DNA of 64,000 nt from Tubulanus polymorphus (Eukaryota; Animalia; Nemertea), in NCBI RefSeq assembly GCF_964204645.1, contig NC_134025.1, positions 7,874,001 to 7,938,000 on the forward strand, given 5' to 3'. Position numbers and translations under genes: made by a program. Shown here piece after piece: positions 9,801 to 62,236 of the stretch. The notes beneath the pieces were generated by a model. The model saw nothing but the letters and a program-made list of their open reading frames with translations, made no database searches and was not told the DNA's origin. How positions within the stretch are numbered: the first letter of the stretch is position 1; each line of letters begins with the position of its first letter.

Positions 9801-11233
9801 TTGGTAATGGCTACAGTCTTCAGTGTCGAATTCCATGTGGTGTTCTTTTCTTCACAAGGGCGTCGGATACGCATTTGATTTTCCTGGATATCTACAGGCA
9901 CTTCCGCACAACAAGAGCAACTTGAAAATGCACGGGAAGACCAATTTTGAATTGTTTGAAAATTTCGCATTGTTTGCATCCAAATGATGTATACATAGGC
10001 ATGGATTTTTAGGATCAATCGTCCGAGATATTTTCTTGACCTTTTCGGACTCAATGAATACCTGATTACACTAAAAACGATGGTTGTACATTTGAATACA
10101 AATACATACGGGTAGAAGCCTACTTTCGTATGAAAAAAAAACTATTCTACAAATAACACTATAACTAAAGCTTCTTATCATGTGTTAACTGCATATCATA
10201 TTATACACAAAAAATGTATATATATATTCGGTTAAATTTTGAGACAGATGTGATAAAAAAGTGACAGTTTTATATACAATACAGTTACTTGTGTCTGCTC
10301 TAATTCGAGAGGAGCGGCATTTTCTCGAAAAAAATCCTCTTTATTAACACAGCAGTTCTAATGGTAATATTGTTCTTCCGCCCATAGAACCTCGATCTCA
10401 ATTCCAAGTCATCGCTTATTCGGCTAATGTTTATCTAATGACGTTTTAAAAAGGGAGTTGTTGTTTTCGATTTTTTGACGCTGTAATCGCGTTACTCAAG
10501 TACGTGAGCTGTAGTGCGTCATCAATATTGGGACTATTATTTTCAAGGCGTCAATAATTCTGAGTTACCCCTAGTAGTTTTCTTGATAACTTAAATCCAC
10601 GAACTTGATATTTGATCGAGGGAAAATGACAACATATTGATACAAATGGCGTTGCCAATCGAAAATTTTGACTCCTCACCCTGCCTGGTTGACTAGAATA
10701 TGTTTGTAAACGATAGGCTTATTCAACATCAAGCGTTAAAATTACTTTTATTGATGAAGGTAACCGTTATACCGACCACAATAAGTATTCTATCATCTGA
10801 AAAATTGACTACCGCCTAATCGCTGCGCGGAAATGCCCGGCATACTGTTAGATGGATGGGAGTCTTTGTTGAAGACGGAGCTAAAAGGTTGTTGTGCAGA
10901 CGTAACAATAAGTTCTTACTGGTTCGAATATCAGAGCAAAATCATTCGTCGTAAACGGTGTAATAAATGTATGATATACGAAAAACTTTTAACTTCAGTT
11001 CAGGCAGCTGATTCAGCATTTATCACAACAGGTTTTAGCGCTGTGCAGTTCACTACCGGTACTTTCATCTCGGAGATTCACGGAAAATCTAAATCATACA
11101 GGATTGGCCTTGTTGAGAAGGTTTGTTTTTATTTTCTTCGAGATTTCCAGTGAGGAGCATTAACATTGTATATAAATGTGCACCTGCGGCAGGTTGGAGG
11201 AAATCTATCAACAGATGCGAAGATACATTTCTA

Positions 11234-11253
11234 CACTGTAAAAACTAAGAACG
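11234..11253 (+). repeat. Left terminal inverted repeat (CACTG...)
   Basis: Exact reverse complement of 20955-20974. Confidence 0.95.
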
Positions 11254-11400
11254 CAGTGAACATACTGAGAACACTGAAATAAGGTGTTCCCGAACACTTT
11301 TTAATGAATTTGGAACATCATCGAGTGTTCTAAGCTGATTTAAGTGCAAAAGCTCGTTCTGATGAACGCTGAGAACGGCTATGGAACGGCAAGAACACAC
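11250..11400 (+). repeat. Left subterminal repeat region (GAAC-core motifs)
   Basis: Repeated GAACA/GAACG cores (gaacg, gaacat, gaacac, gaacac, gaacat, gaacg, gaacgg, gaacgg, gaacac), with a few inverted GTTC copies. Confidence 0.75.
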
Positions 11401-12315
11401 CGATCACTCCACTAGAGCGTACGTGACTTTTCAAAGCGTTCTAGCACGCTTCACTGCACCTCGCTGACTGTGGAGAATCATCTTTAGTAAGCTTTTGTAT
11501 TCTTGATCTTATAATATTAATCGGCATTCATTGGAAGTAATTATGTCAGATCATGTAGGCCTAAACAAACAGTGCATTTCACAGCCGGCGTAGGCCTAAT
11601 ACGCGCCACGATGCGCCATAAATGCAATGAATGAATGCGGCAGAAAATCTTTTGGCGGAGGCCTCCACCATAACTGCGAGCTAAGTGAAGCCACATTTTT
11701 TCAGACAATTATTAGCGGCCGCTGCCTTGTGAATTAAAGTTTTATACCAAAAAATATTTTCCTCGGTGACTCCGCGCTGTTAATCAGGGCAGGGATCGAA
11801 CCTATGAACTAAAGCTACAATCTCGCTCAAGAAAGTGAATTTGATTGATTTGACTTTTCTCAAGGTCGTTGAGCTTAAGCTGTCTGCTAAAAACGAACAG
11901 TCGCCAAAATTCCACATTCATTGCCTTAAGAAATTATAATTCGAGGCCTTTACGGGTATGATAGTTTACATCTCTGTAGGCCTAAATAAAAAGATAAAAG
12001 CTGCGGTGCATTTTATTGGCATGATGATATACTGAAACTGTGTTATTTTTCTTTTCAGTTTCTTTGCCGTTCAGCCATGCCCATGCAACGATATATTGCA
12101 TTCCAAGATATTACTAGTTTTACGCGCATACTGGAAATTTGCTCTTATTTGAATTTTGACGTCAGCGATGAAGTGATTGATAGCCACTTTACCATATGCT
12201 TTTTTAACATAGGACAGTGCAACCTGATCCAGAATATTTGTGCCTATTATTTGATCGAATATCAAGTCATAAATACAACATTATCGTTGTAGAATCAGTA
12301 CAGTAGAGAGTAAGT

Positions 12316-14847
12316 ATGGTCTATACTTGTAACTTATGTAACTTTTTTTCAATAAGCAATGATGATTTTAAAAATCACATCTTAAGAAAACATAGAAATG
12401 ATCCACATTTCAAAATAACGTGTGATGCCTGTGGTGCCACCTATCATAATTATTTTTCATATCGTAGTCATTTTAAACGCCACCATGCCCATAGGGAAGA
12501 AGTTGACCATGAACCCGATGACATAGACCTACCAGAACCGCAAAATCTCCAAATAGGCCTAAATGATGATCCTAGACCTGACTTAGGCCTGGTGGAACAT
12601 GATATTCAACAAAATCAAAATGAACTCAATGTTGCAGCAGTTGACCAACTGAAAATGAGTGCTGGGCAATTCATTCTAAAAATGAGAGCTGGCCATAAAA
12701 TAAGTGCAAGAGCAACCTGTGAGATGCTTGAAACAGTCAGCCAGTTTACTGAAATTGTTTCTGAGTGTACTCGTGATAATATTCTTAGATTAGTTCCTGG
12801 ACTGAATGAAGAACAAAAGAATTTGATTACTCATTACTTTGCTGAAAAACAGGATGTATTTGCTGGGCTTCAAAGTACTTATATGCAGAACAAGTTCTTT
12901 AGAGATAATTTCTCTTTGGTTGAACCTGTGGAAATAGTGTTAGGTCATTATTTCAAAAAGGTCAAGGTTAAAGGTAGATATATTTTCAAGAAAGTCCCTG
13001 CTCTTGGCTATTTTATACCATTATTAGAAACTCTTAAATCAATTTTGAGTATACCTCAAGTAAAGAATTGTGCCAATATAAGTCATGCTAGTGAAGATCA
13101 ATACATGCGAGACATGTGCGATGGTACTTATTTCAAAAACCATCCTCTGTTCAAAAAAAACCCGAATGCACTTTGCCTTCTTGCATACTGTGATGATTTC
13201 GAGCTAGCCAATCCGATTGGAACTCATGCCAAATTGCATAAAATAATCATATTCTATGTAGTTGTATGCAACATTCCACCTGAATTACGATCAAAATTGC
13301 CAGTAATTCATCTTGTAGCTGTTACACTGAGAAAGTATATTGTTGGTCACAGGGACAGGCTTCAAAAGCTTCTTAAAAATTTTGTTGATGATCTAAACAC
13401 TCTCTATGATGGGTACACATTCATCTTACCCTCCGGCATATATCGTACTAATGGGACTTTATTGGCATTCACTGGAGATACGCCTGCAGCAAATGAAATT
13501 GCTGGCTTTAAAGAAGGGGTTGGTGGAGCCAGCAAGCCTTGCAGACTTTGTGATATTCATAAGAATGACATGAATGCTATATTCTGTCCCTCTGACTGCA
13601 TGATGCGAGAAGAAGTTGAACATAGAGAGAGGTGTAATTACCTGAAAGAACTTAGTAGGGCTGATAGGCTTCTAATGAGTAGTGAGTATGGGATAAATAA
13701 TGATTCTGTGTTGCAAGGTATCAATGATTTCCAGATAACGAAGTGTTTTCCTATGGATGTCATGCATGTACTACTGGAAGGAATTTGCAATTATGAGACC
13801 AAATTATGTCTTCGACATATGGTATCTGATAAAAACATGAATGTTAGTGTTCTAAACAACTGCATAGCAAATTACAGCTATTCTGAACTTGAAATGAAAG
13901 ATAGACCTCAACCCATAGATAGAAAAACTCTTTTTGGTAATGGAAAACTAAATCAAACGTCTGAATCTATGCGGATATTAATGTATCATTTGCCATTCAT
14001 TTTGAACGCTATGAACATACTAGATGATAGAGATGAGTATTGGAGTAACTGGATACGTCTTCAAAAGATAACTATTCTGAGTTTATCCCCTATTATATCT
14101 GATGAAACTATTGCATTTATAGATATATTGGTTGCAGTACACAACAGAAAATTCGTAGAGATTTATCCCGATGAGAGCTATACGCCCAAATTGCACTATA
14201 TGGTACATTTGGGGGATCAGATGCGAAAATATGGTCCTCTGCGCACACATTGGTGTATGCGCTTCGAAGGGAAACATGGTTTTTTCAAAAAGATGAAATG
14301 GAACAATTTTAAGAATATTGCTCTAGTTATTGCGACAAAGCACCAGCAGTGGCTTTGTCTTCAGCAACTCGGGACGGATGGGCAAAGATCCATGTGTTTC
14401 TTAAATGACGAAGATGACATAAAATTTGGGCACATAATGCATGAAGACGAAGACCATTTCAATGATATAATGACATATTTAGTACGTGAAACACATAGAT
14501 TGCAGATAGGTCCTTTGATGATAAGCCCAAAGATCGTCGTACATGGTCATATTTACATGCCTGACAACATTCTCCTTTTAGAATTCGATGAAGATGAATA
14601 TCCCGTATTTTGTAAGATTACTAAGATTGTAGTTGTTCAGGAAGAGAAATACTTGCTACTTGATAGGTTTTTAGTCGAGAGGTATGATTACACTCTCAAT
14701 GCTTATGAGCTTCGAGAGGATCACTCTTGTAGTAGAAATAAGATCTTGTCTGTTCAGGATCTCCAATTCCCTTGGGTACTGCCCCAAAAATGCTTTGGTT
14801 ATAAGAGATATGTTTTACTTTGCTATAGTCCTCTCGTAATGTTGTAA
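12316..14847 (+). CDS. EnSpm/CACTA transposase (843 aa) with two N-terminal C2H2 zinc fingers
   Basis: Uninterrupted ORF inside the TIRs. C2H2 fingers CNLC...HILRKH and CDAC...HFKRHH. CMC transposase motifs: YCDDFELANPIG, FTGDTPAA..IAGF, PCRLC, FPMDVMHVLLEG, TPKLHYMVH, GPLRTHWCMRFEGKH. Confidence 0.93.
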   Translation: MVYTCNLCNFFSISNDDFKNHILRKHRNDPHFKITCDACGATYHNYFSYRSHFKRHHAHREEVDHEPDDIDLPEPQNLQIGLNDDPRPDLGLVEHDIQQNQNELNVAAVDQLKMSAGQFILKMRAGHKISARATCEMLETVSQFTEIVSECTRDNILRLVPGLNEEQKNLITHYFAEKQDVFAGLQSTYMQNKFFRDNFSLVEPVEIVLGHYFKKVKVKGRYIFKKVPALGYFIPLLETLKSILSIPQVKNCANISHASEDQYMRDMCDGTYFKNHPLFKKNPNALCLLAYCDDFELANPIGTHAKLHKIIIFYVVVCNIPPELRSKLPVIHLVAVTLRKYIVGHRDRLQKLLKNFVDDLNTLYDGYTFILPSGIYRTNGTLLAFTGDTPAANEIAGFKEGVGGASKPCRLCDIHKNDMNAIFCPSDCMMREEVEHRERCNYLKELSRADRLLMSSEYGINNDSVLQGINDFQITKCFPMDVMHVLLEGICNYETKLCLRHMVSDKNMNVSVLNNCIANYSYSELEMKDRPQPIDRKTLFGNGKLNQTSESMRILMYHLPFILNAMNILDDRDEYWSNWIRLQKITILSLSPIISDETIAFIDILVAVHNRKFVEIYPDESYTPKLHYMVHLGDQMRKYGPLRTHWCMRFEGKHGFFKKMKWNNFKNIALVIATKHQQWLCLQQLGTDGQRSMCFLNDEDDIKFGHIMHEDEDHFNDIMTYLVRETHRLQIGPLMISPKIVVHGHIYMPDNILLLEFDEDEYPVFCKITKIVVVQEEKYLLLDRFLVERYDYTLNAYELREDHSCSRNKILSVQDLQFPWVLPQKCFGYKRYVLLCYSPLVML

Positions 14848-14915
14848 ACTGCTGTTGTTTTTATAGATTTTATAGAAGGCTAGGTCACTGGATGTGGTGT
14901 GTCTGTCAGAAACTA

Positions 14916-15076
14916 CAGTGGAACCTCGTTACTTCATGAGACCAGAAAATATGTTCATTATAACTGATATATTTTGAATCCAGTATGAAAAATTATAGGA
15001 GGTCAAATTATCCCATTTTGAACAGTTTGTAATAACCGATAAATCGTTATATCTGATGTTATAACGAGGTTCCATG
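14916..15076. mobile_element. Tc1/mariner-pogo (Tigger-like) MITE nested between the two transposon genes
   Basis: TA|CAGTGGAACCTCGTTA ... TAACGAGGTTCCATG|TA: imperfect TIRs with a TA duplication. Confidence 0.75.
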
Positions 15077-15208
15077 TATATCCAACTATCTGACTACTCC
15101 TTTAATGCTAGAATTTTTGTGGAAATATTTCTTATTGCTTAGGTAAACTGTCCGTTTGAAAAAGCAAGGTTTTCAATCTCACACTGACAGTGTCAGCTTT
15201 ATTAAAAT

Positions 15209-18200
15209 ATGTGTTCGGTCGACAACAAAACCACACTTCATCGGTGCATAAATTCAGCAGGAAACAAAGTTTTCTTGATCGCGTCATCACTAAAAATGTT
15301 AAAAGATAAAGGTATGTAAGTCGATATTTGGTATTATGTAGTTCAAGTTCAAGTTCATGTAAATATACTGGTTTATTTAATCTTGTATAACAATATTTTT
15401 GGTTGTTTAGCTACGAAATGGTTATCTTCAAGTGAAGATGATCCACCGTCAGTGTACACCAGCGATGGAACTGAGATCTTCGACGAAGAGGTGTTTGAGG
15501 TGATTTCACAAACTGATACGACTCTCCTCATATTAAAGTCTGGTGAAACTCTGATCAATTATGGTGAGTATATAGGCGTATATATTCTTAGAAATGGTGA
15601 ATCATCAAATTATCGTAGTTGTTTTAACTAATTATAATTCAATTATAACTTTTATTAGACGTCCATAAGAGTACTCTTCAACCTGATTTATCTTCGTCAA
15701 CTGATACTGACATCAGCTCAGAAAGGTCTGATTTCATTGATTCGGAGGAATCGGCATCAATTGTGAGTATATCTTTTATATACTATCAATTATAACAGGG
15801 TTCCTACAGCCCCTCAAATCCCTCGAATAACCCTCAAATTTAGAATTGGTCATGTAGCAAGCCTGTAAAATCCAATATTTAAAGGAATTACCAAAACTAA
15901 GCGCTGATGTGGTGGATAAGCTATCAGCCTCTGCATCAGCTGCTGCCGCCGTTTGGGATGAATGTGTGACTCAAATGGCATACGGTTTACTCAAGAGACC
16001 CGAGGGAATCTCGACATCAAGACAATATACAGAGGCATGCCAAGAACTCATAAAAAGATATCCCAATTTGGCCAGAATCTCAGCTGGTAAAGTTACAAAG
16101 CCTTGGGTAAGTAATCATTATATGATATTATAATTACATTATATTATATTATAACCTTTAACTATTTGCATATTAATCTAAAACTTGGAATTTCAATGAA
16201 AAGTGATAGTTCATATCTCAAGTTGGATTCATCGAAGCAAAATCCTGAAATGTTTTTAAGGAAAAAGACTAAATACCGGTATATATGTTATAATTTTTAG
16301 CCCACTTGGCCGAAGGCCATTCGGTTAGTCCCTGTGGTTGGTTGCACAGTTTTGATTTAAGTCCAAAAGTTGTCTTAAATTTTAGAAGTGATCTTAGGTT
16401 GTTAGATTGGCTATAGAACTTAGTTGGTCTTAAGTCTAAGCCGTGACTATGCAACCGGCCCTGGGTCTTAGTGTGGTCTGGCGTGCGTGTGTCATATTTC
16501 TTGTGAACGCTCTACAGACCACAGTTTTTGGCCAATCGGCTTTAAATTCACATATATTGTGTATGACCAAAACATCTCGGAGGAGTTTTATATTTGTATT
16601 AATTGGATCCAAGATGGCTGATTGGCGGCCATCTTGGTTTCTGAAATGTGAAATGAAATGGTCTATCATATGACCAAACAAGGTCATCATATCATCCAAT
16701 ATGGCCGCCTGGTGACCATCTTGGTTTCTGAAAATGCACAATTTTGATATTACCTGATATAATATTCCATGTAGATCTTTCATATTTCATATGAGAATGT
16801 GAAATAGAAGGGTCTATCATATGACCAAACTAGGTCTTCTTAGCACCTGTCCTATTGTGCTTAGATTTTGTTTGATTAAGGTGGCTTTTAAGAAATCGTT
16901 AAGTATGAAAGTGAGACACATTCGGCACTACAGAAAGAAGAGAGATAATACGTCAGCTAGCAGTAGTTACAGGAAGGCAGTTAAGGTTTCAGGTAATTTT
17001 ATGAAATAATAGTTTAGTCGTACATGTATGTATTATTAATGAAATATGGTATGATATTAAAACAGATGAATCTGTTTTAGCTTGCCGTGGTTTGAGTCGG
17101 GAGTCTCCGTCGTCGCCTGTTGGTGGTTTAGACGAAGACCGGAGTTCTTTCACAGCTGTTAAAGCGTCAGGTATTTATAAAATGAATAGTTCGTTGTTGT
17201 TCCTGATAAAATTCCAATCAAATTACCGCATCTAATTAGATGAGTCTCTTTTAGGTCGTTGTGGTTTGAGTCGGGAGTCTCCGTCACCTGTTGGTTTTTT
17301 AAACGAAGGCTGGAGTTCTTGCGAAGCTGTTAAAGCATCAGGTAGTTATAAAATGAATAGTTCGTTGTTGTTCCTGATAAAATTCCAATCAAATTACCGC
17401 ATCTAATTAGATGAGTCTCTTTTAGGTCGTTGTGGTTTGAGTCGGGAGTCTCGGTCACCTATTGTTTTTTTAAACGAAGACTGGAGTTCTTGCGAAGCTC
17501 TTAAATCGTCAGGTATTTATAAAATGAATAGTTCGTTGTTGTTCCTGATAAAATTCCAATCAAATTACCGCATCTAATTAGATGTGTCTCTTTTAGGTCG
17601 TTGTGGTTTGAGTCGGGAGTCTCCGTCACCTGTTGGTTTTTTAAACGAAGGCTGGAGTTCTTGCGAAGCTGTTAAAGCATCAGGTAGTTATAAAATGAAT
17701 AGTTCGTTGTTGTTCCTGATAAAATTCCAATCCAATTACCGCATCTAATTAGATGAGTCTCTTTTAGCTTGCCGTGGTTTGAGTCAGAAGTCTCCGTCAC
17801 CTGTTGGTTTTTTAAACGAAGACTGGAGTTCTTGCGAAGCTGTTAAAGCGTCGGGTAGTTATCTGAAATAATGGTTTAGTTGTATATATGATTGACGAAA
17901 TTCTATTCAGATTATGGTATGATATTAAAACAGACGAGTCTCTTTTAGTTTGCGGTGCTTTGAGTCAGGAGTCTCCGTCGCCCGTTGGTGTTTTAGCTGA
18001 AGACCTGAGTCCTTCTGAAGTCTCAAATAGTGGTAAGAATGATTCCAAAGTATATGAAATGTATTAATGTGAATTGAGTTCAGATGCCTCTTTTCTTTAA
18101 TCTCTTAGACCAAGCTGACCTTGCTATGTTAGGAGAAAAGCGATTGTTGGACCGACCAAAGATATTCAAACTGATGAAGGCCACACTAGCGCAGCGTCGA

Positions 18201-19702
18201 CAGGAAATAAGAAATTCAGGCGATATACTTTTCTTCATGCAAAAGTATAAATTTTTTCAACATTTAGATTATGTGAGTGCAAATATCTTTGATTTTGAAA
18301 TTTCCACATCAAATAAGATTTATTTGGTTGTAAAGTTTGTTTTGGATATTTTTAGATTTTCGAGGAATTTCATTTGATGGGATATGCAAGGGACTTTCTA
18401 CATAATTTTTCTCAGAGATATGAATCAATGTTAGAAAAGTTAGCCACTTTGGCTATGATGAATGGAGATATTAGCGTAAGTCGCCTAGCCCGATTGATGT
18501 TGATTTTTTAAATTACGAAGTACACTTTGAAGAGTTCTGCTTGGATAATGTAATCCTGCTATTTTCATCTGTAAGCTTCAACATTTTGTCCATGTTTCAA
18601 CACATGGCTAAATCTATATAGCTGCGTTCACACGACAACTAGTTAGACCGGTCTAAATCGGTCCGCACTGGGCCCACAGGATGTCGCCATGAGTATTTTA
18701 CCCCAAAATTTATGTAAATGATCATAGATTTATGATTCCCTGGCAGTTTTTTATTTGAACAATTTTGACGCAGTGTACCATATATCTGGACACATCAACC
18801 TATAATAGATTCTAGGTATTTTCCAGAACAATTTATAGGGATATCTATTCAACTATCAACATACGCTGAGATTTTAAGATAAATAATAATCCGTTAGCGT
18901 ACACATTAATTTTAGGTAGTAAAGAAATTATATGAAATCTTAAAACTATATTAATAGGCTTGATAAGTAATTGCTGACGATACAATTGAATTGATATTGC
19001 AGAGTACGATTTAGACCGGCTCCTAGTACCAGTTTCTCTCCACGGCACACACACAGATTTAGTTCTGTCCTAATTTAGACCCATCTTAATAATGTCGTCT
19101 AAACGCGCCTATACAGTATATGTATTCTAAACCTACGTATTTATCATTCTAGGAGGATCAGCATCAGATTGCTTTGATTGAGTTTGTACACAAGGAAACA
19201 AGCTACAATTATTCACGTTGTATAATTTCCGTTGTTGACGTAAGTTCATTTGCCTAAGCTTGAGCTAATTATGAAAATATCTGGTACTTAAAATATTTCT
19301 GGTATTTAAAACATTTCTCTGACTTGAATTTAAGGATAGTCAAAATCTCATACAATGTTTTTATGGTTACAGTATTGGTATTTTTAGGAAGTGGACTTTG
19401 GAAAGACCAGCAATTCAGAAAATTCAGCATTCCCAAGTATTGTTGTGGTTGGTGATGGGGTATCGTATGCGCAATATTTTCTTTCTATCGGAACAGTGCT
19501 TATCGATTGTACCACCTACAAAGATCTATCCGGAATCAAGTTAGCATTACTGGCAACACTGGTATTGTACTACATTTTTGACCTGAACTATCCGAGACCT
19601 TTCAAGGAGTCCCTATCATTCTTTCAGGCAGTTCTATTTCAAGAAAATTGTCGTAAAGGCAATAGAACGGCCAAATTATTCAGCCATTTTACATGTAGTT
19701 AA
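15209..19702 (+). CDS. Transposon ORF2: CIDE-N domain + repeated Ser/Pro linker + SAMD3-like C-terminal region (about 663 aa, 15 exons)
   Basis: Exons 15209-15311, 15411-15563, 15659-15762, 15885-16106, 16881-16992, 17066-17170, 17240-17341, 17411-17512, 17582-17683, 17753-17854, 17934-18032, 18109-18272, 18356-18475, 19153-19239, 19388-19702. All introns are GT-AG; the exons total 1992 nt in a continuous frame to TAA. The N-terminus ..FLIASSLKMLKDKATKWL..SDGTEIFDEEVFEVI..TTLLILKSGE matches the CIDE-N pattern. MKATLAQRRQEI and LYYIFDLNYPR..SLSFFQ match SAMD3-like motifs (recognised by eye). Confidence 0.82.
16292..16850 (+). mobile_element. Helentron-associated (HINE-like) non-autonomous repeat remnant in ORF2 intron 4
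   Basis: Starts TTTTTAGCCCACTTGGCCGAAGGCC. Contains two copies of a CCAAGATGGC...GCCATCTTGGTTTCTGAAA unit and GGTCTATCATATGACCAAAC, as in invertebrate HINE/pearl-type repeats. Boundaries are approximate. Confidence 0.55.
16335..16461. mobile_element. Small MITE (PIF/Harbinger-like) inserted in the HINE remnant
   Basis: Imperfect TIRs GGTTGGTTGCACAGT ... ACTATGCAACCGGCC with internal TTAAGTC/CTTAA repeats. The TSD is not clean. Confidence 0.5.
17040..18032 (+). repeat. Tandem repeat, 171-bp period (about 6 units); each unit is one exon plus one intron
   Basis: Units start at 17240, 17411, 17582 and 17753 (exact 171-bp spacing), with more diverged copies at 17066 and 17934. Confidence 0.92.
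18621..19109. mobile_element. Degenerate MITE (Harbinger-like termini) in ORF2 intron 13
   Basis: Left end GCTGCGTTCACACGACAACTAGTTAGACCGGTCTAAAT versus the reverse complement of the right end GGCGCGTTTAGACGACATTATTAAGATGGGTCTAAAT. Flanked by TATA on both sides. Confidence 0.6.
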
Positions 19703-19754
19703 ATAATACATGTAGTTGAATTCCTGGAAAATCCAGCCTTGGTAAACTAATGAG

Positions 19755-19997
19755 TAGTTTGAGTAAAAATACAATATTAGAATTGAAATCTGACAGTGAG
19801 ATTTAAAAGATCAGTTTGGTGGAGCAGATTTTGTGGCCTTTTAAAGTGAGAAGGGTCAGTGTGATTCTACGAGGCATTCATTAATTCATTCATCCTGACC
19901 CTACTCACTTTAAAAGGCCACAACATTTGCTCCACTTAGGCGATCTTTAATTTCAGGGTCAAATTTCATCTTCAATAATAATTTTTCACTAAAACTG
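19755..19997. repeat. Long imperfect inverted repeat / foldback (about 100-bp arms) just after the ORF2 stop
   Basis: GGTGGAGCAGATTTTGTGGCCTTTTAAAGTGAGAAGGGTCAG pairs with CTGACCCTACTCACTTTAAAAGGCCACAACATTTGCTCCAC. Pairing continues outward with mismatches. Confidence 0.85.
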
Positions 19998-20037
19998 TAT
20001 GCTATAAAACTACATTTCTGTATAGGCGGTAACTGTT

Positions 20038-20150
20038 AGGAATTTCATTTCAGGGGATATGTAAGGGATTTTCTAAGTGATTTTTCTCAAAGATATGAAT
20101 CAATGATTGAAAAGTTAGCCACTTTGGCTTGGATGAGTGAAGATATTATC
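20038..20150 (+). pseudogene. Degenerate duplicate of ORF2 exon 13
   Basis: AGGAATTTCATTTCAGGGGATATGTAAGGGATTTTCTAAGTGATTTTTCTCAAAGATATGAATCAATGATTGAAAAGTTAGCCACTTTGGCT is a close copy of about 18363-18453. Confidence 0.8.
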
Positions 20151-20282
20151 ATTTAGATGAACTAGAAAATGCGCATTCAGAAAAGAAATAAACCTGGAAA
20201 ATCGGCAGAATTTTGAATTTGCTTGAACTATATATGCTCTTCTTTGATTGTGTTTTTATTTCACGCTTAAGGCTGAACTGTT

Positions 20283-20660
20283 CAGATATATTATATTATG
20301 TTTTTTAGTGATGCAGACTGAGATGGTCAGATATATATTTTACCATGTGAATGACATGTACTAATGCAGCTATTAAAAGGCAGCATTCTCTTAAAAAGAG
20401 CGTGTATGTATTTGATTTACGCTTATTGTGGCCAAATACATTGGTTAAGGATTTTGATTCAATGGAGTTTGTGCACAAAGAAACCAGATACATTTTATTA
20501 TGTTTTTTAGTGATGCTGACTGAGATAGTCAGATATATATTTTACCATGTGAATGACATGTGCTAATGCAGCTATTAAAAGGCAGCATTCTCTTAAAAAG
20601 AGCGTGTATGTATTTGATTTACGCTTATTGTGGCCAAATACATTGGTTAAGAATTTTGAT
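20283..20660 (+). repeat. Direct repeat, two copies of about 175 bp at a 202-bp offset
   Basis: 20283-20458 is nearly identical to 20485-20660; also visible as the duplicated peptide in ORFs 20351 and 20553. Confidence 0.9.
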
Positions 20661-20745
20661 ACTTCCTTTTTGACAATTTTAATTCAAAATAATAAAATTT
20701 TGGATTTCAAGATTAATCTCATCTTTTTGGTTTTTCTGCCGGGAA

Positions 20746-20954
20746 TGTGTTGAGTTTTGCAATGTTCCCTCAGGTGTTCCGGAGTTCTACAAGTGTGTTC
20801 CCAAAAGGTGTTCTTGCAGTGTTCCCACTGGTGTTCCAGAGTTCTAAGAGTATGTTCCCAAAAGGAGTTCTCGTAATGTTCCCACAAGTGTTCCATGATT
20901 TAAGTGTTCCAAAACTCTACTCAACTGAAAATGTTCTAAGTAGTGTTCAAGATA
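20746..20954 (+). repeat. Right subterminal repeat array (GTGTTC/GTTC cores, 57-bp higher-order unit)
   Basis: More than 12 GTTC-core motifs about 10-13 bp apart. The 57-bp super-unit shows up as the 19-aa periodicity of spurious ORF 20684..20896. Confidence 0.85.
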
Positions 20955-20974
20955 CGTTCTTAGTTTTTACAGTG
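20955..20974 (-). repeat. Right terminal inverted repeat (...CAGTG)
   Basis: Exact reverse complement of 11234-11253. Confidence 0.95.
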
Positions 20975-21108
20975 TACTGAATCACATTTCTACAATTCAT
21001 TCTTAAAATCTACCGCGTGTAGGATTTTTACTGGTCTTTCCCCGAAAATACGCACTCAGCCGCTGCGCCTGCGGAGTCGATCTCGCAAGTGCCCGAGGAA
21101 ACTGCGCC

Positions 21109-53600: not shown

Positions 53601-56600
53601 AGCAAGGTAATTTATCTTGAACTTCGAAACATTAAATCCACACTTGACGTCCCGTGTCTTGAACACGGTCCGTAACGCACGGTACCATTCTATGTAATTT
53701 TGTTAATCTTCCAACACGTCAGAAGTTAATGCGTTGAAATGATGTATAAACTATACGCTGTTTGCATTCAATAATCTTATAGTGCATCTACGAATTAGAG
53801 ACATCGACCAACTGAATCCGAAAACGTTATCGCCATCAACTTCGGGAATTACCTACTGGCAAATTGAACCGGAGTCAAGTACAATTAACGGTAATTAAAT
53901 AATGCATATATTGTTGAATTTATTGTTAAGTACTGTGCAATTTCCATATAAAATCTTGAATTGTCGGATTTCACACTGAGGGCAATATTCATGATATATA
54001 CAGGAGATATACTACTATGGGAACAACAATTTCGTTTCCGGCACATGACTACACGTCAGTATCTATGCATCTCGGCCGAAATGAAGGTGACCTTGACCGA
54101 AGATGTCGAAGATCCACGCACGGTGTTCCGTCTACACCCAGTTGTCAAAGAATCGGATGAAATCACGTTTGAAAGTTACGCCCGAATTGAGAATGTCCTA
54201 ACCGGATATTGGCTCCATGCACTGAAGGGTCAGTCTCGAATCGAAATTGTTTAAAGAAATGAGATTCTAAATCTAGTTTTTGTCCTCGAAATTCCAAAAC
54301 CCACTTCTTTATTTACGTAGAGGAGGAATATAAAAGGGAACAGTTCCAAGGAGCTGAAAATGACACATCGATGAGAGGTCTACGGTGGGATGGAGCAGAA
54401 CTACGAAAGGTGATTTCTGATCCTAGATATACATCGTAATAAAATGTGTTAACTTTTGCATGCACCAGTAAATTCATATTCATCTGGATATATGATCTCG
54501 CGGACCAGTGCATGCCTCATCCACAATTATTCTATGGCAACCGACAATAAACAGATTCACCGGATAATTCAATCACCGGTCTTGTGACTGTATTTCTGCC
54601 TTGTTCATCTTTTAGCTGTCGGCCAGCGGAGAGAGAATGTACGATGATGCATTTACCATACAGAAAATAGTAGATGAGCACGCCAATTCGTTTAACTTCG
54701 TGGCAGGAATGGTGCCCGTTCTCGTCAATCTAATTAAAGACGTAAGCCGCCCTCACTCGTCATTACATTGCAATTTATTGCATTCCGTCATGATCTCGCA
54801 ATAGTAGGAAAATGATAAACTTCAGAATCACCATAAATTGAAAGCAATCATTTCTAGCTGAATGTTCGTTAGTTTGCACAATTGATTAGAGCACAACATG
54901 ATACTCTTATTCTTTACAGTAACAGTAACATCTTTTTTGTTTTTTATGAGAAGCTATTTTACAGCGATTTCTTTACACTTAAGCTGTTTAACTATGCTAT
55001 TGTTTTATAAGAAGAAGGTATTTTTGCTCATTTGTATCTCAGTGAAGCTATTTGTGTACATCTTTCTTTCTAATCACAGCGACGTGAAGGCCGCTTCCTA
55101 AACGCAAAGAAAACGTTCAAAGTTTTGACGGCTTTGAAAGAATTGAGAGAGTTCGTCATGAACGACGGTGAAGCTGATAAAAATCGCCAAAAACTGCTCC
55201 GGAATCTCAGGGTGTGTACAAACATGCAATATCTCATTACAGACAGTTTTTTTTTGTTCATTCTGTGAAGTATGCGATAACAACCGCAATGGCGCGTTAC
55301 GCAATAAAACAGTCAATATAGCCATAAAACAACCATTTTCCGAGAGAAAATGTCTTCGAGAAATGCTACGAATGATATAGTTTATTTTCTATAACCAGTA
55401 CAAACGTTATTTTTGCCCGTTTACAGGTAATTGATTTACTAGTAATGTTGCTGCAGTGCAAATTGAAAGGCGTCGCCGATGAAATTAACCTAACGAAAGT
55501 GTTCAAAGCTGCGTACGAGGTCATTTACAGCTATATGATCGGTAACAGTCGGAAAAATGCGCTGTACTTCGCCAAATATATCGACTTCTTCCAAACTCAG
55601 TTTTCTATAAAGGTAATGAATATGAATATTTTACAATGCGATCACATTTCGTCTTATTTATACCCTTCAAAATAGAATATATAAGGACAATTTCAAACCT
55701 TTCAAAACCAATGTGCGTTTGTTTTAACAGGGTGATATTGGTCTTAACGTTGCTCAGATGATCGTGGAATTAGTAAGAGACAACAGAAAAATTGTAGACA
55801 GAATTACTCAAACTCAAATTGATGAATTTGTCGATCTGTTAAGGGAAAATCAGGTATAAACCGTTTTGACAAATTTTCTCGTCTCTCTCATACTGGCACA
55901 TCTCAAAATGTATGTAAGAATGGACCTTAAAGATACCATTATCTTTAGAACTATCGTTATCTGGACCTGTTAAAAGTTCTGTGTGTATGCGATGGTGTAC
56001 CAATACCAGATAACCAAACGTACGTGGCACAGCGATGGCTCATGAAAGATAAGGTAGGCTTATTCGTCATATTAATGGGATTTTATATAAGTTTTCATCG
56101 TGGATATTTCCAAGGGAAATATATCGCGTCACCCCGTTATCTTCCCAGACTATTCACAAGGAAGCAACACCGAGACCGAAGCCAAAACTGAAAGCCGCCG
56201 CTGATACGGCTTATACTGAAGTCATAAAAGAACTTGGTCCACCTCGTGGAGAACAGGTATGCCAGAAAAATGACGGCCTGATCAATCAAATTTCAATGAG
56301 ACAATATCTTAAGAATACGTTTTACGCTGAGGAATTTTATCTTGGATATTTTAGCGGGGTCTGTACCTGACCGAACGAGGCCAGAATATTCACAAAACAC
56401 CAAACATATGTTACGTGTCAACGGATAGGGGACGATCGTGGACGCCACTTCACGAATTTGTGGAGGTTTGTGGAAAGATTGTAACTGGATAACTGAAAAA
56501 ACAGCCGTTTTATAACTATTTGTCTAGATCACGTCAAACTAATTACATTTACTTTCAGAGAACCAACCCAAGTTTCTCAGATGATGAATACACATTTCTC

Positions 56601-59600
56601 ATTCATCAACTAGATTTATTTGCTGCTTTGTGCTTCGTAAGTGAATTTTGCATAAACATTCATGTGTGTGTGTGTGTGTCATGTCTATCTATATGTAAAA
56701 TGAATGAATTCTTAACGTTTTTAGGGAAGAAATGATTTTTGCATCCATCTCATCACAAGACAGCTGAGTTATTTGTCCTGGGAAGAGGTTTTCCTCTGCC
56801 TACAGTCTGAGATTCTCCCCGATGATATAAGAGCTAAATATTGTGAACTCATCATAGGTAATTCTTTATGATACAAGTATCACGAAAACGCTACTATATT
56901 GATATTTCAAACAGTCATAAATGATGCAGTTGTAATTTTTTATGTATATACTTTGTTTTACAGGGTTATTTGTTGACGTCGGCAATAATTTTTCAGTGCT
57001 CGATCATCCAAACATATCCTTTATATATGAGTATATAGGAACTAAAGATCAGAACAAATCTCAAGGAGACATGGTAATGTCAATGTTCTCATGTCCTGCG
57101 ATCATTAGATTTTAGACAGATACCTATTTTCATTCATACTTTCTTACATCATCTAGAGTGCTCCGCGAGATTTGGTTACTATTTTCCCAGTACTGAGGGA
57201 CTGGATTACCGAGTTTCTCGATGAAAATAAGGGAATGACTGCTAGTACTATCGGACATAATATGCTCATCGAACAGGTAAAGAATAATCGGTTAATTGTT
57301 TCGGGGAAAGATAACTAGGAAGATAAACGTTTTTAGCATGTGATTCCAAAATCCATTTCACGCAGGTGCTGAGATTACTGTATTACCTGGTTCAATTTGG
57401 ATATTACGGTGATGTGGATGATGTAAAATGCCTGCTGAATCCCTTACTAAATTTACTAGATGGTAGACACGATGTTCCATTCTTGCCCGATAAGGAAAAA
57501 GGTAACTTCTGTCGTGCAGCGGCTGCAACATTTCATTTTACATTTTTCTTTACTTACACCCTTTTTATCTGTGTAACAGGTTACTCCAAAGACTCCCAGA
57601 AACTTATACAAAGATACCGCAGTGGAGAACGATATGAAAGAGCAGCCGAAACTGCGGCCATTGTGAATGCAAAATGCAGGTATGTCTGTGCATGATGCCG
57701 AAACCGATTTGCTGACGATGGCTAATAGTCTTTAGCCGAAACTTGCTCAGATTATATACATCTCTAAGTACTACGCGCTTGCTCTCGTATTTTCATCTTA
57801 CATGGATATTGTGTATCATCTCGACTTATGATTTGGTAGTTTGTTCCTGTCTAAATAAACACTAAACTTCACTTATTGAACGTAGGGCGATGGAAGTCTT
57901 AGATCTACTCTTGACATATCAGTCGAATACCCGTCTCGAGGCGTTCATACGAAAATTTAAAGAAAGTGAACAATCCGCGCATCTCAAATCAAAGCATCAA
58001 CACATCTTACTACCTACTATGTTTGCGACGTTTGATGCTTTTGATACAGTGAAGTGAGTTGATATTTTTATTCTCAAATATGCCCGACCTCAAAAATAAC
58101 CGAAGAGGTCCGCGCGTCTTTACGAATGCATCTTACGTTTTGTTATCGTTTTCATCTTTTTCATTTTTTTAGGAAAGCAATGAGGAAGCAAAAGATGATG
58201 GTGAAAGAATTGAAAGAAATGTTTGAGAGCAGTGCATACATTGATGGCGAACAGATTACCGCCATTCTTTTGGTAAAACCCTGCGTGTGATATTTGAATT
58301 TGAATCTCCGTATTTTTGTGATTCTATATGATAGCTTAAAAATCCATTCGTTTTATAGGATCTGTCTAATTACAAGTACGACAAGATGATCCAAATGTCA
58401 CTACGGCTGTTGACGAAATTCTATTCGTCGAAAACAAACCTTTTTAAAACCGCCGTCAGAGCGCAAGTATGAACATTAGCTGATATACATGTAGATGATG
58501 TTCATCGTACAATGAACTTCACTAGAAAAAATATTGAAAGTTGCTTTTGACGTACTTATATCGGAAGTTTATATTTCTACAGGTGCTTATCACCACCGAT
58601 TCGTGTAAAATACACCGGGAAGTTGCTCGCCAGATGCCTGTGATGCGAATGTTGGCTCGCATTAAGATGAACGACCGACAAGTGGAACGCATGGAGTACA
58701 TACTCGAAGAATTCATCGAGTAAGTTAGGCTCCGATTCAACTTTCTTTGTTCTACGTGTAGTATTGTGTTTTTTGACGTTCGATAATCATTTCATCGTTA
58801 TCATCTCATTTTTTCGTATTTTCGTTCTTGACAATTTCAACCTTCGATTAGGTAATGGACAAACTTGCGCATAAAGTTTTTCATCGTGGCATTATTTTTT
58901 CATCATTGCACGTTAAATGATTTCAGATATGCAATTATTCAAATACCAAAGTATGTATGAAACGCTAAAAACACCCTAGATCTTTAGCAAAAATGAATGA
59001 ACGTAAAAGTCTGTCTCAAAACACTCGAAACATCCTTCCCTTCTCTATAATGACTCACAATAATGCAGTTAGTCCGACTTATAGTATTTTTTTTAATCTC
59101 ACTCGTGAAGTGTTTTCTGCTTTGGTGAAATGTGCACGTGGATCAACGTCAAGCACAGGGTTTCCTAATGTATAACTTTTTCCATAACAACTTCGTATTC
59201 CACTCAGATTCCCCTCAGATTATACACATATAAACTAATTCTTCAATTTCAAAATCAAATGAACAAATCATATAAACATCACACTGCAGTAAAAATCCTC
59301 ATTAATAATCCGTGGATATATATTGCGGCTTTGATCGATAGGTAATTTTTTGTCCAGCTATTTCTAGCCTACAGTAGTACCAGATTAAAGATTTCTTTAT
59401 GTTTATGTACAAAAACTGTATATTAAAAACGTTTACAATATTTAGGTTTTGTCACTTACCTAAAGTCCCAGAGGAACGCCACCCTATGAATCAAAGCATC
59501 CTAGTTACACATGGTAAGACAATTTTCATCCGAGCTTTGTTTGATGTGTTAAACCACCACACATTAACAAATATTAAACTCTTACCGATTGAATATTTGT

Positions 59601-62236
59601 AGATGTTCTTTCTGTGCTGTTTCAAATCTTGTCGCAGGACTTCGATGTTATAACAAAGGTTAGTTTTGGCTTTTAGTCAATTACAAATATAACGTTTCTC
59701 AAATGATCGGCTACCATACTCTAAATAGTTGGAAAAGTTTGATTCATTTGATAAGTCTACAACTATATTAAGTCTAATACTACGTTATCAATTCAGTAAT
59801 AATCAGTTCTAATTTGCTTTTTCTAGGATCGTTATCCAGGAATGGAGCGAATATTTCAAAAGGCGTTGAAGCTCCTGCAGTTTCTAACACGTGGTTTTGA
59901 CCTAGTCCAGAGAAGGGTATTTGATAAGATGGATACACTGCTAAAAATCCACATGGAACGTTCTCAACTAGCTACTTGTTTGAAAGAGGTGTTCGTTGGT
60001 AATCAGAATACCTGCCTGAAGATATTACCGAGACAGATCCAAAGGATAGTTGGTTTGGCAGTTGAACACAGAGAAAAGGCACCGGAGTTACTCGACTTAC
60101 TGAACGCTATTGCTAAAGTTGAAGGACAGAATCTCGCCTTGAAGAGAAATCAAACGCTGGTAATGAAGTACATAATGCAGAACTATGCAAAGGCGGCTTA
60201 CGTTCTTGACCAACCGTGGGAGATGAGGTGGGCTTAAGTTCTCTTTATTCTCTTCATTGCTTTCGTCACTGTTTTCTAAACACTTATCCTTTTACTTTTG
60301 TTATTTTTATTTTATAGAGAGAAATTATTGACTTATCAAGGAGAACATTCACACCTGAGATATCTTATTAGTTTGATAGATCTGCTGGCAACATGTGCCG
60401 AGGTAACTTGTTAAATGATACCCAGGTCTGTGTTAGTGATAATTTCAATGTACCATGTATATTTACCTATTTCAGGGTGAAAATCGGTTTATAGAATCGC
60501 TCTGTCAGACGATCATATCACTCGATGAAGTGCTTTCTGTTTTGAACCATAAGAACATCGAATTCAGTTTGAAGAAACCTTATCTTCGATATTTGATATG
60601 GGTTTACATGAGAACTGCCGGTACCGTGGTAGAAAGTGGTGCTGGGGATCTTCCTCACGACACGTAAGCTATAGATCTAATAGCGGATCGATTCAGTTAA
60701 CTTATAGAGGAAATATGTAGCCATCACTAAATCTAACGCAAACCTCTCCTTGATCAGGACAAATGTTTATAAACGATAAATGAACAGAGGTGGTGCCCTG
60801 ATCTCAATGAGCATGATACCTTTTGTAACCGTTTTCATGATTTCCTTCGTTTCATAGAAAATTAGCTAAATTATCGTCCCAAGGACATGATAATTTATGA
60901 GGCATGTCATTTTTGGCTAACGGTTATTTCAAGTTTTCGAGTCATCTGGCCCATCTTAATCTCATTTTAACTATGCATGTTCGTTGTTCAAGGCTGTTCA
61001 AGATTTTGTGAACAATTTTAGTGTTTATCATTAATCATACGTAAAGAAGGATGACGTTAATACTTCTTTTTTCATGTTGATAACTTTACCAGCGGGCCCA
61101 AGTAAGTTTCTCACCCAGTCTGCTGCGAACGCTTGTGTTTTTATTGGCATGCTCAAAGTGTTCCTTTCGTAGCCGACCAGGTCGATTTTTGTACATATTT
61201 CATTTCTTAGAAGCGTCTTCATGAATAGTGTTAGTCTAGTTATAGTAAATTAGACTAGAAGATTCATCTGCAAAAATCACATTTCCGCTTCGTTAGGAAA
61301 TCTTGGCTAGTTTTCCGACGTAGAATACAATTATCACAGAAATGAAATTCAAGCATGACATAGCGAACTTTTAATTAAATCGTATATAAATGACTAACAC
61401 TTAAAAGCTGCATCGCTGTTTATTACCTTGCCTCAAACTAACACACTTCTATTCTAGGCACATTGCTATCGTTGTCTCCTGGTGGATCTTGTGGTATCTA
61501 GGAATTCCATTCTGTTGAGGAGTTCTTTTCTTAATGAGGCACAGCAAAAATGTCTCCACCACGAAGCAGCTTAATTTATCATTTTATATCTAAATTATGT
61601 GTACTGAGATTTTATTCGGTATTTACAAAATGTTAAAATCTCAATGGGATATACTCATCATTCATGTTATGAATTATTCTCATATTGATATTATGTCATG
61701 TGATTTCTATTACGTATTTAATCTCATCTAAAAGAAAATACGTTCAAACTCTGATTTAGTCTACTACTTGCGTTCATTGCATGGATTGATGAAAACAACT
61801 TTTATATTTTCATATTTTATTTTTGAAATAACATTTGTTATCAAGTGGGGGTGGTGATCACTCTATAGATAAAAATGCACGTTTAGTTTAGCATTTTTTA
61901 CGTATAACTTAGGTGACGAAGAAGAAAGTACTTTCTTGTCTGGTAATATATATTTTCCTCTGAAACTGCAGGAGGATATGATACATTTGGTTTTATACGT
62001 TTGATATATTTCATAACATTTCTAGTCAAACGATATGAAAATAAAGATTGTTATATTCGGCGTGTGATTATATTGCTGTGGAAACAAATGCCTATCCTCA
62101 TCGTTTTATTCTCCAGGTCCATTTGGCTGTTCGTGCAAAAAATCTCCGAGGAGGCAAAAAAACTGACCGACTATATCAACACTACGAACAATCTCGACAA
62201 AATTGGACGGCTCCTTGTGACGAAACCGCCGAGAAT
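44633..62236 (+). CDS. ITPR: Inositol 1,4,5-trisphosphate receptor-like Ca2+ release channel (divergent ITPR family); 5' part, continues beyond the window
   Basis: 35 GT-AG exons in a continuous frame (about 1409 aa): 44633-44715, 47594-47667, 51211-51335, 51977-52063, 52490-52567, 52991-53071, 53161-53258, 53343-53436, 53519-53606, 53783-53890, 54004-54228, 54321-54409, 54616-54741, 55080-55211, 55427-55612, 55731-55853, 55949-56053, 56149-56256, 56355-56465, 56559-56636, 56725-56857, 56964-57073, 57157-57276, 57366-57501, 57580-57679, 57886-58053, 58173-58272, 58359-58466, 58583-58719, 59446-59513, 59603-59658, 59827-60227, 60318-60402, 60476-60663, 62117-62236. Motifs: FLCVGDYVCLY (suppressor domain), YGEIIQLKH and FRFRHMTTRQYL (MIR), RQKLLR, SRKN, DNRKIVDRI, YLDLLKVLCVCDG..IPDNQ (RIH), LIDLLATCAEGEN. 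Confidence 0.9.
48467..48530 (+). repeat. G-rich low-complexity tract (poly-G plus further G runs) in an ITPR-like intron
   Basis: About 13 consecutive G at 48470-48482 and GGGGGG at about 48506-48511; probably a repeat remnant. Confidence 0.6.
56663..56679. repeat. (TG)8 intronic microsatellite
   Basis: Read directly from the sequence. Confidence 0.8.

Follow-up and report, generated by a model that had tools for sequence, protein, structure and literature searches.

A helper gene with a CIDE-N domain in an animal EnSpm/CACTA transposon, and the exchange of its N-terminal module among related elements

We analysed 64,000 nucleotides of the genome of the nemertean Tubulanus polymorphus (contig NC_134025.1, positions 7,874,001 to 7,938,000; this whole stretch is called the window, and its own numbering is used below). 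The window holds an intact EnSpm/CACTA (CMC) element of 9.7 kb at 11234-20974. Besides its transposase the element carries a second gene of 15 exons, here called the helper, whose product starts with what sequence profiles identify as a CIDE-N domain, a module familiar from proteins of apoptosis and of lipid droplets. Related elements have a SAM or a PB1-like module in the same place, and we show that the three are mutually exclusive in this one role of EnSpm helpers. The helper is probably a polymerising protein, comparable to TnpA of plants, that binds the ends of the element, with CIDE-N chaining its copies along subterminal arrays of GTTC repeats.

The borders of the element are sharp. Its terminal inverted repeats (TIRs) match at 20/20 nt, the left one (11234-11253, plus strand) starting with CACTG and the right one (20955-20974, minus strand) ending with CAGTG, and TA stands on either flank as target-site duplication (TSD; 11232-11233 and 20975-20976). 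Contigs of sequencing run X1 break at both borders, 11234 and 20975, and X1 depth is 175-220 inside the element versus 34-40 outside, although depth is no copy number. The element is a young animal EnSpm/CACTA transposon, present in multiple copies as judged from RefSeq accessions and contig breaks. Dense subterminal arrays lie at both ends and are mutually inverted. The left array (11249-11441) has 13 GTTC/GAAC cores, of which 9 stand in the opposite orientation to those of the right array, and falls within the transcribed leader; the right array (20757-20959) has 16 GTTC cores, in part as a 57-bp tandem unit, and is far from any promoter. The window mean is 1.9 cores per 250 nt (sd 1.6), and the best 250-nt window elsewhere has 6. 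The element thus displays the marks of the CMC/EnSpm group: TIRs with CAC..GTG ends, a 2-bp TSD where the group has 2-3 bp, subterminal repeat arrays and a second gene. Probable miniature inverted-repeat transposable elements are nested in it at ~14919-15074, ~16380-16460, ~18620-19110 and 19806-19948, the nested short repeats displaying very high depth, many loose run ends or inverted arms.

An intronless reading frame (12316-14847, plus strand) encodes a CMC/EnSpm transposase of 843 aa with two C2H2 fingers, D293, D388, C409xxC412, H484, H627xxxH631 and E651. Across 31 sequences D293, D388, C409, C412, H627 and E651 are invariant and H631 is present in at least 90%, which agrees with the EnSpm catalytic motif; C(2)C and H(3-4)H motifs define CMC/EnSpm transposases (PMC12730594). 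The 5' leader contains a GT..AG intron (11487-12058, plus strand) that is skipped in run X4, which is RNA-like. A second EnSpm transposase family with the same species label, ~50% identical in the core, is represented by P0013, P0089 and P0090.

The helper gene follows at 15209-19702 on the plus strand. An earlier note on this DNA, made from the sequence alone, had described a clean 15-exon frame between the TIRs. That frame is real: all introns are GT-AG, the exons join into a single open frame that codes for 633 aa and then stops (the 663 aa given in the note was a miscount), and the product is letter-identical to RefSeq protein P0004 (4 accessions on 3 contigs, XP_074643479.1 among them, labelled Tubulanus polymorphus), with close variants at further RefSeq loci. 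Exons 1-2 (15209-15311, 15411-15563) encode the CIDE-N domain, at residues ~10-85, and exon 3 (15659-15762) an acidic Ser-rich linker. Exons 4-5 (15885-16106, 16881-16992) encode a conserved helical domain of residues 121-223, exons 6-11 (17081-18032) a disordered Ser-rich linker of 174 aa, and exons 12-15 (18109-18272, 18356-18475, 19153-19239, 19388-19702) a conserved alpha/beta C-terminal domain. The splice junctions that the note had suggested looking for are largely present, with 12 of 14 introns skipped in X4 among the joint rows listed; the junctions that follow exons 6 and 7 are missing from these rows, and X4 junctions within the 171-bp repeats are not assignable to a single unit. Contigs of X1-X3 display none of these skips. 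One X4 contig of 3,960 nt extends from 12059 across the transposase as far as the spliced helper exons; a contig is not a transcript, and it fits, without proving, a transposase-helper read-through transcript.

The middle of the gene has been amplified. Positions 17064-18032 consist of six tandem intron+exon units of ~171 bp, with every exon in phase 1-1, pointing to exon amplification by tandem duplication; these units lengthen the helper linker to 224 aa, whereas in 10 homologues it measures 59-132 aa. Exon 13 and exon 14 have degenerate duplicates in the 3' region, at 20038-20148 (87%) and 20454-20509 (73%), and the former is the alternative last exon of RefSeq models P0001 and P0008.

Profile comparisons bear out the claim of a CIDE-N domain. 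Residues 20-81 of the helper match PF02017 positions 14-74 at 31.9 bits (E 1.4e-7, Pfam cut-off 23.5), and the exon-2 frame by itself matches at E 3.8e-4. Homologues that share the helical or C-terminal domain score higher, at 50.7 bits in Lottia (P0055), 52.7 in Lingula (P0063), 61.7 in Haliotis (P0085), 50.7 in Saccoglossus (P0058) and 34.7 in Solemya (P0054). A profile built from the transposon CIDE-N family matches 13 solved CIDE sequences at E 4e-16 to 4e-5, with CIDE-A best (E 3.6e-16), followed by DREP2, FSP27 and CIDE-B, then DREP3, ICAD, DREP4 and CAD; the first four score 54-62 bits, ICAD/CAD 26-40 bits. The strand and helix order predicted by AlphaFold2 fits a beta-grasp, at a pLDDT of 34-63, and Foldseek lists the DREP2 CIDE only at E 2.4.

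CIDE domains form head-to-tail filaments through oppositely charged faces (PMC8647176). When DREP3 interface positions from that paper were transferred by spacing, not by a DREP3 alignment, the transposon CIDE-N rows were charged at the basic positions in 15/16, 12/15, 14/17 and 10/11 and at the acidic positions in 10/11, 6/11, 10/11, 9/11 and 10/11. Opposite basic and acidic faces thus appear to be kept in the relatives, and this copy is charged at 6/9 positions. By comparisons of 28 codons each, CIDE exon 1 is under purifying selection: pN is 0.05-0.16 and pS 0.31-0.72 in five closer pairs, and 0.34-0.43 and 0.67-0.80 in two distant pairs. Its phase-1 donor is shared by 9/11 loci and is the same in the window.

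In the AlphaFold2 model the helper has three folded parts. The N-terminal one resembles a beta-grasp and is of low confidence; a helical part (121-223) and an alpha/beta part (~400-633) are both confident. The helical domain ends in a basic helix with 9 K/R per 23 residues, and it is a predicted DNA-binding domain; it occurs in two tandem copies in P0053/P0069. With the full model, neither the helical nor the C-terminal domain found a clear match (Foldseek no E <0.001; best VIA Z 5.8), and NCBIfam had no match for the helper. Plant En/Spm accessory families are absent from the Pfam matches of P0004 at E up to 5 and from those of 17 homologues at E up to 1. In the ESM Atlas the whole helper falls into a 224-member cluster with CIDE-N in 21% (score 0.95), and its C-terminal part into no named cluster. 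Word-based protein searches with the C-terminal domain returned the element's own cluster only; HMMER against all representatives returned 20 proteins, 2 of which are spurious repeats (P0056, P0060). Complex prediction for transposase 190-843 with helper 396-633 scored 0.00 when run without alignments, which is evidence neither way. The note's label "SAMD3-like", placed here on the C-terminal domain, we take as an assumption: no SAMD3-named protein is among the retrieved homologues, and by Pfam this helper has CIDE-N in place of the SAMD3-type N-terminal SAM. In proteins labelled Sepia, Argonauta and Mytilus (P0057, P0062, P0070, P0087), which are long and of low complexity with a common N-terminus, the helper helical domain stands at the end; these mollusc proteins may possibly represent a domesticated host gene.

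We then compared the element with its relatives. Related transposases mark 427 metagenome loci, of which the best 80 were taken; these form 67 clusters at 85% identity. Parts of the helper gene are present in 45/80 loci, and in 19/22 of those with at least 2 kb downstream; the gene accompanies transposases that are merely ~25-40% identical. The linkage of CIDE-N to the transposon holds in this sample, since CIDE-N exons occur in 13/80 loci, directly downstream of the transposase and on its strand in all of them, with none in 160 kb of upstream versus 126 kb of downstream DNA. Pfam independently matches 14/16 of the CIDE-N exon frames at E up to 0.05. TIR pairs were found in 4/80 loci, convincingly in L021 (TSD AG) and L020 (flanks differ); at L021 the TIRs enclose both transposase and helper, with the AG duplication outside. 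One related locus also holds, ~1.1 kb downstream of its transposase, an intronless lysine methyltransferase frame (L071:5222-5809; Pfam E 2e-43).

The N-terminal module of the helper differs from locus to locus: of the 80 loci, 13 have CIDE-N, 21 SAM and 5 a PB1-like beta-grasp, and two types never occur together. The SAM and PB1-like half-exons were found by iterated home-made profiles, in which members score high by construction, and Pfam on 99 locus frames left them unrecognised except for one weak SAM-like match. The SAM-module profile matches the SAM domain of Sfmbt (E 2.8e-7; closest) and Bicc1. The third module is a predicted beta-grasp (pLDDT 85) for which PB1 ranked first (Foldseek prob 1.0, TM 0.64-0.71; VIA Z 9.1), and the N-terminus of the wasp protein P0069 resembles it. 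The helical or C-terminal domain was also seen in 17/21 SAM loci, 3/13 CIDE-N loci and 3/5 PB1-like loci. Annotated full-length proteins cover all three architectures, with CIDE-N in P0055, P0063 and P0085, SAM in P0068 and a beta-grasp-like module in P0069; full-length P0068 carries a SAM domain recognised by Pfam, and its two remaining domains can each be aligned with P0004 (E 1e-14 and 4e-6).

A FastTree built from 76 transposases implies at least 6 changes of module type, and its starred branches require no fewer than 2 separate CIDE-N groups; this tree omits 5 short rows, has long branches, one of them the window's own row, and carries no bootstrap. The layout of the helper varies as well, being downstream, divergent, or with a SAM exon ahead of the transposase. 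At L034, L038, L042, L043, L047, L061 and L063 a SAM exon with a phase-0 GT donor at the same position stands just before the transposase ATG, and the remaining helper exons, if the contig is long enough to include them, lie downstream of the transposase. Judged by sequence, the transposase in these seven loci is apparently nested in an intron of the helper gene.

SAM and DIX/PB1 are, in turn, classic head-to-tail polymerisers that give avidity (PMC7614096). By analogy, the property common to the three modules would be self-assembly, not apoptosis. The idea of the earlier note that CIDE-N oligomerises the helper is supported indirectly by the relatives, in which SAM and PB1-like modules take the same role. 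From the swap among three polymeriser folds, together with the interface charges kept, we therefore infer an analogue of TnpA. In the mechanism that we propose, the basic helical domain would bind the GTTC repeats at both element ends, and CIDE-N would chain helper copies head-to-tail along the arrays. Polymerisation could then provide avidity on short weak sites and pair the ends, while the conserved C-terminal domain is a candidate recruiter of the transposase or of a chromatin factor. DNA binding, polymerisation, contact with the transposase and a role in transposition are all predicted properties of the helper. More tentatively, and with somewhat less confidence than doubt, we consider a wider history in which the polymer module (CIDE-N, SAM or PB1-like) was swapped repeatedly within a protein that forms a filament on subterminal repeats and pairs the ends, vertebrate SAMD3 and some mollusc host genes were domesticated from it, and CIDE-N was perhaps exchanged between host and transposon.

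Several observations weigh against an end-binding polymer of this kind. The copy in the window is worn at 3/9 interface-equivalent positions (V21, W38 and F58 are uncharged), with Phe at the equivalent of DREP3 D167, whose mutation blocks filaments (PMC8647176), and confidence in its CIDE-N model is low, as the pLDDT given above indicates. Pfam ties neither the helical nor the C-terminal domain to TnpA or to DNA-binding families, and TnpA-like proteins are confined to flowering plants according to a preprint (10.64898/2026.08.24.746577). Just 3/13 CIDE-N loci are long enough for the downstream domains and 0/13 have both TIRs; many of the 80 loci may come from few hosts, and some are near-copies. 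The PB1-like call is within 1 Z of DREP3 CIDE and Ras-binding folds (Foldseek E 4.5e-3), and the RNA support comes from a single run of unrecorded kind in one study.

Other functions were considered for the helper. It may act mainly as a transcriptional or anti-silencing regulator (compare maize TnpA and VANC) that binds its own element and uses the polymer domain to form a chromatin condensate, outside the cutting complex. The closest SAM match, Sfmbt, is a Polycomb protein, the left array lies inside the transcribed leader, the helical domain terminates the apparently host-encoded mollusc proteins P0057, P0062 and P0087, and plant TnpA acts in anti-silencing (10.64898/2026.08.24.746577). Such a role is compatible with a polymerising end-binding helper and does not exclude it, but inverted arrays at both ends, the right one far from promoters, fit it poorly, and as the main function we consider it unlikely. 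Alternatively, CIDE-N may be decaying in this element, or only heterotypic, so that the working form is a fusion in which transposase codons 1-219 (zinc fingers; 12316-12973, plus strand) provide DNA binding and a basic first strand. RefSeq sister-copy models do splice these codons to an acceptor at 15261, giving a zinc-finger/CIDE-N isoform at two loci (P0001, P0005, P0007-P0009, P0011), and this would agree with the partial loss of interface charges in this copy; the SAM exon donors before the transposase start in seven relatives show that shared splicing exists in the family. However, X4 contigs lack the 12973-15261 joint, no conservation of the donor was found (just 10/42 relatives have a GT at the corresponding codon, at a glycine), and relatives begin CIDE-N at their own ATG. 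The fusion may be uncommon or confined to this element, and that it is the working form seems quite improbable.

The second suggestion of the earlier note, interference with host CAD/ICAD (DFF40/45), taken here as CIDE-N binding them to damp nuclease activity or apoptosis after transposon breaks, was not supported. It is true that CIDE domains also form hetero-complexes (PMC8647176) and that the family profile matches ICAD and CAD (E 2e-9 to 4e-5). Yet the profile is nearer to CIDE-A, DREP2, FSP27 and CIDE-B, non-apoptotic SAM or PB1-like modules replace CIDE-N in 26/80 loci, and relatives appear to keep both charged faces, as for self-assembly. Moreover, Pfam and PDB searches detected no ICAD C-terminal chaperone region in the helper, CIDE-N being the sole ICAD-type domain found. 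We regard this explanation as very improbable, and what stands of the note's interpretation is the two-gene animal CACTA system, the true CIDE-N domain and its linkage to the transposon. Hardly credible, and largely refuted, is the view that the helper is a captured host gene fragment and an unused passenger. CACTA elements do capture host sequence, and nested repeats and duplications are present in this one, but the same gene stands beside widely diverged transposases, its intron position is conserved, its first exon is under purifying selection and its frame is open through 15 exons.

The element resembles other animal CMC/EnSpm elements in its CAC..GTG ends, 2-bp TSD, C(2)C/H(3-4)H motifs and two open reading frames (ORFs). 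Such termini and TSD are described for ENS1_Cis of Ciona savignyi and for Takifugu CACTA elements similar to zebrafish EnSpm-15_DR (PMC6004678), and in fish the second ORF of two-ORF CACTA elements is described as "of unknown function" (10.1101/2021.11.16.468883). The difference is that the domains of the second protein (CIDE-N, helical and C-terminal) are given here, whereas the accessible descriptions of the others are without domain anatomy. With the TnpA-TnpD system of maize En/Spm, where transposition needs both proteins (10.64898/2026.08.24.746577), the element shares a transposase plus accessory protein, subterminal repeat arrays, and a transposase upstream of the accessory gene or, in the seven relatives above, apparently within its intron. 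[quoted passage not shown] The surveyed proteins may include this helper family; the word SAMD is absent from the preprint's accessible text. TnpA differs from the helper in that Pfam finds no similarity between them and the accessible descriptions do not give TnpA a CIDE-N, SAM or PB1 domain. A further difference lies in the TSD, of 2 bp in this element. In maize En/Spm it is 3 bp, and there, too, the transposase lies in an intron.

Likewise, the helper shares with CIDE-A/B, FSP27, DREP2-4 and DFF40/45 a PF02017 match above the cut-off and, apparently, in relatives two oppositely charged faces; it differs in being transposon-borne, in having no nuclease, inhibitor or lipid-droplet domain and in the charges lost from this copy. 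In relatives such as P0068 a SAM recognised by Pfam is combined with the helical and C-terminal domains of the helper. Vertebrate SAMD3, to be considered here together with RefSeq "SAMD3-like" proteins, presumably has this same layout of SAM, helical and C-terminal domains, its homology to the helper being our assumption, and it differs from this helper, which is without SAM. If that assumption is true, the helper family is a candidate origin for SAMD3.

A literature search, with Repbase and most subscription papers outside its coverage, found no publication that ties CIDE-N or SAMD3 to transposons, and the accessible text of PMC3417536 holds no such link either. That three polymeriser types are interchangeable in the second gene of animal CACTA elements gives a hint of what the function of that gene requires. 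Molluscs, brachiopods, nemerteans and hemichordates are now seen to have CIDE-N in a mobile element, and transposon-borne copies may account for many gene models named "CIDE-N domain-containing" or "uncharacterized". Should the helper prove to be required, it would also be the component still lacking for mobilising animal CACTA elements in the laboratory. Elsewhere in the window, exons with MIR and RIH domains at 53952-60237 belong to an inositol-trisphosphate-receptor-like host gene.

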